In this document: positions 60,728 through 64,000 of the stretch, in pieces
Layout of the letters: every line of letters begins with the position of its first letter
Position numbering within the stretch: the stretch's first letter is position 1
DNA from: Candidatus Bathyarchaeota archaeon
GTDB taxonomy: Archaea > Thermoproteota > Bathyarchaeia > Bathyarchaeales > Bathycorpusculaceae
DNA: 64,000 nucleotides
NCBI GenBank assembly: GCA_963806535.1
Contig: CAWDYC010000007.1
Location: 224,001 to 288,000, forward strand
Direction: 5' to 3'
Program-made: the position numbers and the translations under genes
The notes under the pieces: model-generated
Databases searched by the model: none
Seen by the model: the letters and a program-made list of their open reading frames with translations, nothing else
Told to the model about the DNA's origin: nothing

Positions 60728-62764
60728 ATGGCTAACACTCAATTAACTGTAGATCCACAGCAGCTTTTTCAAGAGTTCTTTAAAAAAGAAAAGTATCGAC
60801 AACGAATCGCTCAACTAGCCATCACTGGAAGAAACTCGGTAATAATTGATTTTGAAGAGCTCTACGCGTTTGATCAATCGCTCGCTGAGCAATTACTCAA
60901 TAGGCCAGAAGAGTACTTGCAGCATGCTGGAAAAGGAGCTTATGAGCAACTCCGTATTGAAGATTCTGAGTACGCTGAGAAAATTGAAAAAATAATCATA
61001 AGAGTTGTAGAACTTCTTGGCAAGGAACAGCTTAGAAAGCTTGGCTCAAGACAAATGGCGAAGCTAATCATGGTTGAGGGAATAGTGGTTAGAGCCACCC
61101 CAGTCCGTCCAATGGTGTTGCAAGGAGCTTTCAAATGCAAACGCTGCGGAACAATGAATCAAGTTGAACAAACTGGACAGTTCTTAAAAGCACCAGCAAT
61201 ATGCCAAGCACCAGACTGCGGCAGAGATGGACCTTTCGAATTTACCCAAGAAGAATCCACTTTTATAGATTCCCAAGACCTTCGATTGCAGGAAAAACCT
61301 GAAGATCTACCGCCCGGCCAGTTGCCGCGTACATTAGCAGTGAAACTGGTAGGCGACGACATAGTTGACGTTGCAAGGCCAGGAGACCATGTTGGAGTTG
61401 TTGGAATTGTCCGTGCTTTTGCGCCTTCACTTATGGGAATGGGAAAACTCAGAACATTCATTTTACAACTTGACGCTAACTCAATCGGCGTACTTGGCAA
61501 AGAACCAGAAACATCACCGCCAACACCTGAAGAAGAAGAAAAAATCCGTACACTCTCTCAAGACCCTAATGTTCATAAAAAAATTATGCAGTCAATAGCG
61601 CCGTCCATTTTCGGTTACGAGCACATTAAAGAAGCAATAATGTACCTGCTTTTCGGCGGAGTGTCAAAAAGTCTTCCAGACGTAAACATAAGAGGGGAAA
61701 TGAACGCACTTTTAATCGGTGACCCTGGTACCGCAAAGTCACAGTTACTCCAATATGTTGCACGAATAGCTCCGAGGGGACTCTATACTTCGGGTAGGGG
61801 AACAACCGCGGCAGGCTTAACCGCCGCTGTAGTTAGGGAAAAAGGTGGTAGCATGAGTCTTGAAGCAGGCGCACTTGTTTTAGCCGATAAAGGCATTGCA
61901 TGCATTGACGAAATGGATAAAATGCGCCCTGAAGACAGAGTTGCCATCCACGAAGCTATGGAGCAGCATACGGTTTCAGTTGCAAAAGGTGGAATTGTTG
62001 CAACCTTAAACGCTAGAACAGCAGTGCTTGCAGCCGCTAACCCATCCTTGGGCAGATATGAACCAAACAGAACGGTCGCCGAAAACGTACCGCTACCAGT
62101 AACTATCCTTTCTCGTTTCGATTTAATTTTCGTTTTGCGAGATGTACCTAATAAAGAATCAGATAGTAAAATGTCGCAGCATATTTTGGAAATTCATCGC
62201 AGAGGAGTCAGCCCTGTAGAAGCTCAAGTGGATGCAGAATTGCTTCGAAAATACGTAAGCTTCGCGAAAGGAATAAAACCAGCACTTAGTGTGGAAGCGG
62301 CAAAGCAGCTTAGCGATTTCTATTTAGCTATGCGTGCGGCAAGCGAAACGGAAGGTTCACCTGTAGCAATTACGGCAAGGCAGTTAGAGTCTCTTGTTCG
62401 AATTTCTGAAGCCCGTGCTCGTGTAGCTTTGCGTAAAGAAGTAACTTCTGAAGATGCAGCAGCTGCTATAACTCTAATGAAGAGATCACTTGAGGAAGTG
62501 GGAATCGACTTGTCCTCATACAAAGTCGATATTGACTTGATCATGACTGGCAGACCAAAAAGCATGCGAGATAGATTACACATCATCCTGTCAACACTAA
62601 TGGACATGGAGAAAATAACAGGCATAGTTGAGAAAGACGCACTTGTCACCGAATTGGAAACAAAACATAAGATACCCAGAGGAGAAATTGAACGCATGAT
62701 AAGCCAGATGCTGCGCGAAGGCACAATCTATGAACCACGCGAAGGATGCCTAAAGAAAACCTAA
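60728..62764 (+). CDS. mcm: MCM replicative helicase, no intein
   Basis: Zinc finger CKRC..C...C, LQEKPE, GDPGTAKSQ, IDEMDKM, SRFDL, ITARQLE. Confidence 0.98.
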   Translation: MANTQLTVDPQQLFQEFFKKEKYRQRIAQLAITGRNSVIIDFEELYAFDQSLAEQLLNRPEEYLQHAGKGAYEQLRIEDSEYAEKIEKIIIRVVELLGKEQLRKLGSRQMAKLIMVEGIVVRATPVRPMVLQGAFKCKRCGTMNQVEQTGQFLKAPAICQAPDCGRDGPFEFTQEESTFIDSQDLRLQEKPEDLPPGQLPRTLAVKLVGDDIVDVARPGDHVGVVGIVRAFAPSLMGMGKLRTFILQLDANSIGVLGKEPETSPPTPEEEEKIRTLSQDPNVHKKIMQSIAPSIFGYEHIKEAIMYLLFGGVSKSLPDVNIRGEMNALLIGDPGTAKSQLLQYVARIAPRGLYTSGRGTTAAGLTAAVVREKGGSMSLEAGALVLADKGIACIDEMDKMRPEDRVAIHEAMEQHTVSVAKGGIVATLNARTAVLAAANPSLGRYEPNRTVAENVPLPVTILSRFDLIFVLRDVPNKESDSKMSQHILEIHRRGVSPVEAQVDAELLRKYVSFAKGIKPALSVEAAKQLSDFYLAMRAASETEGSPVAITARQLESLVRISEARARVALRKEVTSEDAAAAITLMKRSLEEVGIDLSSYKVDIDLIMTGRPKSMRDRLHIILSTLMDMEKITGIVEKDALVTELETKHKIPRGEIERMISQMLREGTIYEPREGCLKKT

Positions 62765-62834: not shown

Positions 62835-63608
62835 TTAAGAGATGTAAGTGGTTTTTTTATCTTCTTCTTTACGGGTTTCTTCAGCTTGCAAAGCCCGTTT
62901 TTCCTCGATTTGTTGCAGACGAGTCACCATAGTCTCTGCCCGTGTAATTTCTTCATTTAATCCTGTCAAATCTAGCTCAAAGTTGAAAGTAGATTTTAAA
63001 ACTTCCAAAATGCTTTTGGCTGCAAGCGGATCTGGCAAATAGCCACGTGTTTCACCAAGTAGGCAAAGCGCACTTATTTTTTTGAATTTGGCTAATCCAA
63101 GAATTAAGCCTGCCGTTCCGACAATAGGGCTACCTGAAGTGCTTAAGATTGCACCTGCTTGAAGGGCTTTGTCCAAGATTTCCTGTGAAGTTGCGGCTAT
63201 GAATACTTTGGGTTTTTCTTTTGGTTCCATTCTGTAGCCGCCGATTGTTGCAATAGTTTTTACGCCGTGTTTCTCTGAGAAATTAAGGATTTGATCAGCG
63301 ATTTCATATTGCCCTTCTATTGTTTGTGATTGGCTGTCGCCAGTGAATAAAACTAGGTCATTTTGGCCGTTTGGATTTTTGTAGTAGTAAAATGCGCCTC
63401 TTAAAAGGCGAACATTGCCTTTTTTGTTAACTAAGACAAAATATGGGAAATGTGGAGAGTATAGATAGGCGACTTTTTTGGCTTTTAGCTGTTTAATTAA
63501 GTAACGAAGAGCGATTTTGCCGACAAGTCCCAACCCTGGGAGACCTTCGATTAGAATAGGATTGTTTGGTTCAATTTCCGTAAATTCTTTAATGTAGGTT
63601 TCTTTCAT
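62835..63608 (-). CDS. Proteasome assembly chaperone (PAC2) family protein
   Basis: EGLPGLGLVGK, GDSQ, IGGY, IVGTAGL, LLGET.GY..DP.AA. Confidence 0.92.
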   Translation of the reverse strand: MKETYIKEFTEIEPNNPILIEGLPGLGLVGKIALRYLIKQLKAKKVAYLYSPHFPYFVLVNKKGNVRLLRGAFYYYKNPNGQNDLVLFTGDSQSQTIEGQYEIADQILNFSEKHGVKTIATIGGYRMEPKEKPKVFIAATSQEILDKALQAGAILSTSGSPIVGTAGLILGLAKFKKISALCLLGETRGYLPDPLAAKSILEVLKSTFNFELDLTGLNEEITRAETMVTRLQQIEEKRALQAEETRKEEDKKTTYIS

Positions 63609-63772
63609 TTAGTACAGCTCCTTTTCATTTCCATCCGATACTTTAAGTATTTATCGTCAGGCGAAAACTTAGGCGGATGCGGAATCCTAACAGGGCCACC
63701 ACAGTAAGGGCACTTATCCTTTTGCAGAGTATATTTTTCACAGTTCACACATTTGCGAAGTTGCCAGACCAA
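63605..63772 (-). CDS. nop10: H/ACA RNP protein Nop10
   Basis: MVWQLRKCVNCEKYTLQKDKCPYCGG...PHPPKFSPDDKY.KYR; TTG start; ATGA overlap with PAC2. Confidence 0.93.
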   Translation of the reverse strand: MVWQLRKCVNCEKYTLQKDKCPYCGGPVRIPHPPKFSPDDKYLKYRMEMKRSCTK

Positions 63773-63877
63773 TTATTTTTCCCTTCCAAAAGGGTAAGCT
63801 TCAAAATCTGTAAGAGTTTTTATGGAAGCAATTACTAAGTCGCCAGTTTCTGGCCACTCGGGCTTACGCTCAGCCAT
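63773..63877 (-). pseudogene. 34-codon internally deleted remnant of translation initiation factor aIF2 alpha
   Basis: MAERKPEWPETGDLVIASIKTLTDFEAYPFGREK resembles the aIF2alpha S1-domain start joined to a C-terminal-like F.REK; it fills the canonical slot between S27e and Nop10. Confidence 0.8.
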
Positions 63878-63892
63878 TAATTACTTCATCCC

Positions 63893-64000
63893 TTATTCAA
63901 GAACCGCTTGTACGTCGCCCTTGATTTTTGCTCTTCCGCCAGAGGGTTCTGCTAATGTTTCTCCACATACGTTGCAGGTTATTTTGTTAACTGCGTTGCT
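63893..64000 (-). CDS. rps27e: 30S ribosomal protein S27e, 3' part (5' end beyond the window)
   Basis: SNAVNKITCNVCGETLAEPSGGRAKIKGDVQAVLE*. Confidence 0.93.
   Translation of the reverse strand, partial: SNAVNKITCNVCGETLAEPSGGRAKIKGDVQAVLE

Follow-up and report, generated by a model that had tools for sequence, protein, structure and literature searches.

Does the archaeon whose DNA is presented here initiate translation without the alpha subunit of its initiation factor aIF2, and what is the short open reading frame (ORF) that occupies the place of the gene? The available part of Berthon et al. (2008, PMC2643942) describes the LSIN cluster of archaea as L44E-S27E-aIF-2 alpha-Nop10, with a further gene after Nop10 in euryarchaea. 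The same gene order on one strand is seen at the end of the window, by which we mean the whole analyzed stretch of 64,000 nt, with a PAC2-family gene after nop10. In contrast to the cluster as described in that part of the paper, however, only a relic is left at the aIF-2 alpha position, and the working copy lies elsewhere beside unrelated genes. L44e, S27e and Nop10 were assigned by Pfam, and all genes of the segment are located on the reverse strand. The 3' part of the S27e gene covers positions 63893..64000 (Ribosomal_S27e, 73.2 bits; ORF listing); the gene extends beyond the window end and is complete with 70 aa at contig locus L002 1994-2206, and L44e is seen upstream of it on the contig beyond the window (Ribosomal_L44, 87 bits). 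According to the sequence and the spacing table, 15 nt (63878..63892) lie between the S27e stop and the ATG of the relic (63773..63877), while the S27e-to-aIF2-alpha spacer of full-length loci measures 12-26 nt. Downstream follows nop10 (63605..63772; 55 aa, TTG start; Nop10p, 84.5 bits), whose stop is overlapped by the PAC2-family gene (62835..63608; 257 aa; PAC2, 155.6 bits); this overlap amounts to 4 nt in 57 of 81 loci of the genus. The original prediction had stated that only about 120 bp separate S27e and Nop10 and that the stop touches the Nop10 TTG, and the measured values agree: 120 nt between the stop of S27e and the start of Nop10, and 0 nt between the TAA of the relic and the TTG at 63772. 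Convergent with the PAC2 gene we also observed a 678-aa ORF (60728-62764, forward strand) that by eye resembles an MCM helicase, which would suit the link of LSIN to replication genes published in the available part of PMC2643942.

The short ORF starts with ATG, comprises 34 codons and encodes MAERKPEWPETGDLVIASIKTLTDFEAYPFGREK. By BLASTP, residues 1-28 share 18 of 28 positions with the genome's own full-length aIF2-alpha (E 1e-12). The resemblance is greater to the N-termini of operon aIF2-alpha proteins of relatives (median 21/28 identities) and lower to those encoded at a second locus described below (median 17/28). The tail ...FGREK corresponds to the usual aIF2-alpha C-terminus ...TFRREK. 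Retained in the relic are thus residues 1-28 and the final 6 codons, and some 228 codons between them have been lost in frame; an internal deletion sparing start and stop had been proposed, and both the 28 N-terminal residues and the C-terminal tail are indeed recognizable. A working aIF2-alpha has about 260 aa and both domains of the family; the product here has 34 aa and matches no Pfam family at E 0.01 or better, including S1/OB (PF00575) and EIF_2_alpha (PF07541). Judged by the alignments, this likeness is not a matter of chance, and the ORF is best described as a descendant of aIF2-alpha, not as a functional aIF2-alpha; its identity and its history we regard as nearly certain. Compared with the nearest species, 13 of 34 residues of the relic differ, whereas Nop10 is 95% and the second-locus aIF2-alpha 98% identical in the same comparison, as expected from the drift of the interior that had been suspected to follow the loss.

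A full-length gene could in principle have been collapsed in this slot during assembly or binning, and the genome is indeed metagenome-assembled (91.75% complete, 3.41% contamination). Yet a spacer of 120-121 nt recurs in nine other congeneric species, and 43 of 81 species show the slot collapsed in some form. Contigs from independent public runs cross it gap-free at ~90-92% identity (record 7 of X3 covers L002 1400-2044 and record 15 of X5 covers L002 1402-2198), and the relic is diverged from every full-length copy. One contig of X6 carries a slot variant longer by 60 nt, which is consistent with relics of 53-54 codons. Assembly error is ruled out by the 43 independent species assemblies together with the gap-free metagenome contigs, so that the probability of an artefact is practically nil, and the earlier preference for a real event over mis-assembly was well founded.

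For the missing factor itself we turned to the whole assembly, where a single match exceeded the cut-off of a PF07541 profile search; it lies on contig 3, in an open frame of 264 aa. The aIF2-alpha encoded there (L160 3039-3830, 263 aa) carries S1 and EIF_2_alpha domains (PF00575, 42.2 bits with a cut-off of 22; PF07541, 89.5-90.9 bits with a cut-off of 22.8). It matches the solved structure 1yz6_A over residues 6-261 (E 6.4e-58) and 3aev_A with E 7.4e-58. Set beside the solved aIF2-alpha structures (1yz6, 3aev, 2aho), the contig-3 protein is alike over residues 6-261 and has the same domains, while the relic matches just with its first 28 and last 6 residues and with no domain model. The pN/pS of the contig-3 gene against its nearest orthologs is 0.02-0.07, which by this measure places it under strong purifying selection. 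It is the sole full-length aIF2-alpha found in this genome, and aIF2 beta (124 bits) and aIF2 gamma (107 bits) gave one match each in the search for the three subunits that the original prediction had advised. The suggestion that this lineage initiates translation without aIF2-alpha is contradicted by the intact, constrained copy on contig 3 and by the presence of beta and gamma; loss from the lineage is ruled out by the contig-3 copy together with the genus-wide search reported below.

Several neighbors of the contig-3 gene were recorded as well. A 112-aa ORF (L160 2692-3030, reverse strand) lies 8 nt downstream on the same strand and has no Pfam family above cut-off; a homolog is found directly 3' of aIF2-alpha in 44 of 62 second-locus loci, and this ORF may encode a partner of the paralog or be expressed along with it. 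Just 5' of the gene, again on the same strand, we found a lysine-rich ORF of 100 aa (L160 3877-4179, reverse strand) that has no Pfam match and is present in 18 of 62 second-locus loci. FeoB appears on contig 3 as two overlapping forward-strand ORFs, L160 271-1776 and 1724-2332, one with FeoB_N, FeoB_Cyto and Gate domains and the other with FeoB_C and Gate; the split could be a frameshift, a sequencing error or real.

We measured the S27e-nop10 slot in all 81 sampled Bathyarchaeia genomes of the genus, the present genome (G000) included, and Nop10 was detected in every one of them (81/81). This comparison of the operon in sister genomes, which the original prediction had recommended, yielded three states. 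In 37 of 81 genomes the LSIN cluster is complete, with full-length aIF2-alpha genes of 262 aa and a spacer of ~795-812 nt; in one genome (G069) the slot is full-length (~801 nt) but broken in frame; and in 43 genomes the slot is collapsed to a spacer of 59-300 nt with an ORF of 14-103 codons. The 34-codon form occurs in ten species at no fewer than three separate places of the tree. Relics in the window's own clade have 34, 34, 34, 41, 53, 54 and 54 codons, and the longer ones show more of both gene ends, which suggests a stepwise trimming of the operon copy. The operon copy of G069 (L084) has several frame changes: its first ORF terminates 654 nt before nop10, and the last ~135 codons are open to nop10. 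Either the gene has become a pseudogene very recently, or indel errors of long reads have broken it in what is a single-contig assembly.

Combining the slot states with a genus-wide search using the contig-3 protein, we found the operon copy only in 16 genomes, both copies in 21 genomes, and a second-locus copy together with a collapsed or broken slot in 41 genomes (40 of the 43 collapsed ones and G069). The three genomes with a collapsed slot for which no full copy was found have a completeness of 52%, 58% and 65%. All 48 genomes with a completeness of at least 90% and a contamination of at most 5% contain an aIF2-alpha match, and the genus-wide search revealed no alpha-less genome at 90% completeness or above. 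Second-locus copies of G085, G086 and G088, which are cut by a contig end or contain 1-2 stops, were counted as present and excluded from the tree. Two of these genomes, G086 (L159) and G088 (L158), have a collapsed slot and a second-locus aIF2-alpha that also shows 1-2 stops or frame breaks; assembly error is the more likely cause, and if the breaks are real these genomes would be without an intact copy. In G060 two second-locus copies, 83-84% identical to the query, were observed on two contigs (L139, L142); the contamination of this genome is 6% and the doubling may reflect a mixed bin. Two genomes of other genera carry a second-locus-type copy on another contig as well. The slot of one (G125) holds a 42-codon relic, and that of the other (G226) is a 37-nt spacer without a mini-ORF, followed by a nop10 with GTG start.

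How the two loci are related was analyzed in a quick LG+G4 tree search with 104 aIF2-alpha proteins (37 operon, 60 second-locus and 7 order-level outgroup proteins), excluding the broken copy of G069 and three partial second-locus copies. The copies of the genus form one group (SH-aLRT 100) that divides into an operon clade (SH-aLRT 92) and a second-locus clade (SH-aLRT 99), with stem lengths of 0.09 and 0.25, respectively. As the two kinds of copy are sister clades, the duplication is old and the contig-3 gene is a paralog, not a moved copy. The proposal of a relocated gene was therefore right in that an intact copy exists elsewhere, but this copy belongs to a separate clade and coexists with the operon copy in 21 of 81 genomes, and simple relocation was rejected on the two-clade tree in favor of paralog replacement. 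An older duplicate replaced the original operon copy, which then decayed. Two full-length aIF2-alpha matches per genome were also found in three other genera among the 151 sampled genomes of the family, and any age of the duplication beyond the genus is read solely from these two-copy genomes. A quick search with 81 DNA rows of the three flanking genes gave a tree on which at least six changes of the slot between full and collapsed are required; since it is implausible that an 800-nt gene was regained at the same place, the changes represent repeated losses. In this history an old duplication set a second aIF2-alpha at another locus, the operon copy became dispensable in many lineages of the genus, and internal deletions cut it down to between 103 and 14 codons. 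As a separate observation, both copies of two-paralog species often lie on long end branches (G015_op 0.22, G014_sec 0.28, G058_sec 0.24; median 0.054), which hints at relaxed constraint or at divergence under redundancy.

A parallel case is known for another subunit: the available part of Schramm et al. (2021, PMC8576121) reports the paralogs aIF2 beta-1 and beta-2 in haloarchaea and methanogens and, for Haloferax volcanii, a mutant without the aIF2 alpha subunit that is viable and grows poorly. As described there, the beta paralogs likewise stem from an ancient duplication of a universal factor subunit whose copies are interchangeable. In that case both copies are kept, whereas here it is the alpha subunit that is duplicated, and one copy was repeatedly lost, leaving a relic. 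No description of aIF2-alpha paralogs was found in the open-access literature searched.

The repeated loss raises the question of why an open frame persists at all. If it were kept for its product, the ORF would have to encode a functional small protein of 34 residues, such as an S1/OB-fold fragment that binds RNA or the ribosome. The ORF is intact, homologous ORFs are open in 43 species, and the termini recur, with MAERKP at the beginning and FRREK at the end. The substitution patterns, however, speak against a selected peptide. For pairs of 34-codon relics we calculated a pN/pS of 0.27-2.6 (1.05-2.6 for the relic of the window against its two nearest species) and for longer relics 0.22-0.67, whereas Nop10, S27e and PAC2 gave 0.00-0.13 in the same pairs as the 34-codon relics. 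The flanking genes remained at or below 0.26 in all compared pairs, with the exception of Nop10 in three pairs with G023, where nop10 reads frame-shifted. The products vary from 14 to 103 residues with no common conserved core in the interior, 28 residues are too few for an S1 domain, no Pfam match was obtained, and the conservation of synonymous sites at both ends points to a constraint at the nucleotide level rather than at the peptide level. By these measures the peptide of the relics is not conserved, and a small-protein function is very improbable.

The frame of the relics behaves differently from their peptide. Over 1698 codons in the 43 relics we observed no in-frame stop, whereas the two alternative frames contain 92 and 181 stops. 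Within groups of equal-length relics at least 194 substitutions have occurred, and ~4-5% of possible changes create stops; 8.6 nonsense changes are expected and none was seen (Poisson P 1.8e-4, a value that overstates independence because the species are related). All 43 relics were examined and every relic ORF ends -28 to +13 nt from the nop10 start, so the equal-length grouping cannot conceal truncated relics. Among the full-length loci, the distance between the aIF2-alpha stop and the start of nop10 is -1 to +2 nt without exception (37/37). The expectation that the stop would still adjoin nop10 after the deletion was borne out, with a distance of 0 nt in the window and a stop at -1 to +2 nt, in the original terminal frame, in 34 of 43 species, although kinship makes this per-species count overstate independence. 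Of 28 length/clade classes, which are our own grouping, 21 retain the terminal frame (binomial P 8e-6 for a chance of one third). In nine of the 43 relics the 3' end is no longer in the original frame. Six of them stop at a TAG that lies within a conserved element described below, 12-13 nt ahead of nop10, and the other three read 28 nt into nop10. Several of the nine are single species beside in-frame sisters and may represent recent changes or sequencing errors. In the nine out-of-frame species we saw neither a stronger Shine-Dalgarno sequence nor an ATG start of nop10 that would compensate.

What is conserved in the relics beside the frame are the two ends, ATGGCTGAGCGTAAGCC at the start and TTTTAGAAGGGAAAAATAA at the end, with ~70-99% column identity, synonymous positions included. 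The 5' element comprises the start codon and first codons (first 17 nt; 63861..63877, reverse strand), and its column identity of 80-99%, again including synonymous positions, is found in full-length and collapsed loci alike. The 3' element, in the window TTTTGGAAGGGAAAAATAA, consists of the final codons and the TAA (63773..63791, reverse strand). Its identity of ~70-99%, mostly 80% or more, in 44 loci (43 relics and G069) is equal to or above that of the 37 full-length loci. Working copies, including those at the second locus, have a conserved C-terminus that is likewise encoded by the 3' element; some of the conservation of this element could be a legacy and not the result of new selection. 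Little more than the two ends is left of the shortest relics (14-18 codons), which show a pS of 0, compared with 0.28-0.66 in the flanks. A 4-bp hairpin (GGCU...AGCC) in the 5' element was considered and rejected, as the variants show breaks and no compensating changes.

These observations bear on the possibility that the relic is an untranslated, decaying pseudogene whose ends are kept as signals for the neighboring genes, the 3' end for transcript processing or ribosome binding at nop10 and the 5' end for something tied to S27e, with the open frame a mere leftover of coding ancestry. A pN/pS near 1, the wide spread of lengths, the nine relics out of frame and the slot of G226 without any ORF all fit this explanation, and the nucleotide conservation of the very short relics would suit RNA or DNA signals. 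It does not account for the absence of premature stops or for the frame kept in most length/clade classes, nor for the start and first codons, which are still conserved although the protein is not needed. Moreover, the sequence upstream of nop10 pairs with the 16S tail no better than background, and the 3' element was accordingly rejected as an ordinary Shine-Dalgarno sequence. We consider the untranslated pseudogene unlikely, if not negligibly so.

The pairing was calculated for the 20 nt upstream of nop10 against the genome's own 16S tail. The anti-Shine-Dalgarno duplex reaches -6.6 kcal/mol in the window and has a genus median of -4.1; for random 20-mers of the window the median is -3.6 and the 5th percentile -8.2 kcal/mol. 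The start codon of nop10 is TTG in 61 of 81 loci, GTG in 13 and ATG in 6; one locus was mis-anchored. The start signals of nop10 thus appear weak, and the duplex energy by itself does not prove dependence on upstream translation. The geometry is that of a coupled pair (same strand, stop and start overlapping or few nt apart), with 0 nt here, and the touching aIF2-alpha and nop10 genes, together with the 4-nt overlap of nop10 and PAC2, mark the operon as arranged for ribosome hand-over.

Huber et al. are said to have described in 2019 translational coupling by termination-reinitiation in archaea and bacteria. According to the available part of a later study (Huber et al. 2023, PMC10666635), gaps of ~20 nt nearly abolish termination-reinitiation in H. 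volcanii and Escherichia coli, and in E. coli it requires no more than the final 15 nt of the upstream gene. The gene pairs described there are co-directional with stop and start touching, as here, and a short 3' piece of the upstream gene was enough in the assays; the shortest relic in our data has 14 codons (G053). The present case differs from that part of the study. The product of the upstream gene is needed there and often belongs to the same complex as that of the downstream gene, whereas the upstream ORF here is apparently without a function of its product. The commonest spacing there is an overlap of -4 or -1, while it is mostly 0 for the putative coupling here.

From these data we infer, with a probability of roughly 60%, that the relic is a vestigial ORF retained for termination-reinitiation coupling to nop10. 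Ribosomes leaving S27e would start at the conserved ATG of the relic, which would be translated only as a relay; they would terminate at the stop touching the nop10 start and reinitiate at its weak TTG, which has no real Shine-Dalgarno sequence. Selection would then purge nonsense changes and most frameshifts from the relic and disregard its amino-acid sequence. Once the paralog had made the operon copy dispensable, in-frame deletions would be tolerated, whereas nonsense changes and most frameshifts would strand nop10. Under such a relay, ORFs should shrink and vary freely in the interior while their ends stay fixed and premature stops are absent, as we observed. The nine relics out of frame imply that exact abutment of stop and start is not obligatory, and the slot of G226 that the relay can be lost; G069, whose first ORF terminates far ahead of nop10, counts against it. 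Each component is of a known kind, and the case combines gene duplication and differential loss with translational coupling. On a vestigial ORF kept for coupling, nothing on point was found in the literature searched, subscription journals being outside its scope.

An extension of the vestigial relay would make the mini-ORF a regulatory upstream ORF, going beyond passive hand-over, in which reinitiation at nop10 depends on the reacquisition of initiator tRNA from aIF2. We think this rather improbable. eIF2-dependent control of reinitiation exists in eukaryotes, and the regulatory reading would be its archaeal echo. If it is true, the output of Nop10 and PAC2, and with it ribosome and proteasome biogenesis, would track the initiation capacity of the cell, and the conservation of synonymous sites in the first 17 and last 19 nt would belong to the device.

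For the organism the finding means that this archaeon has a normal aIF2 and that the alarm of a missing factor was false. For annotation it follows that such short ORFs should be labelled as relics and that an empty canonical aIF2-alpha slot should not be taken as absence of the gene. A universal initiation-factor subunit exists as an old paralog pair in a large Bathyarchaeia group from soil and peat, and the conserved LSIN cluster has been broken repeatedly in this group. Across the 43 species a single upstream gene has been shortened by nature to different lengths between 103 and 14 codons, with the frame preserved and the peptide not. This natural deletion series amounts to evolutionary evidence that nop10 depends on ribosomes arriving from the upstream ORF, and it offers ready-made constructs for tests of termination-reinitiation in archaea.
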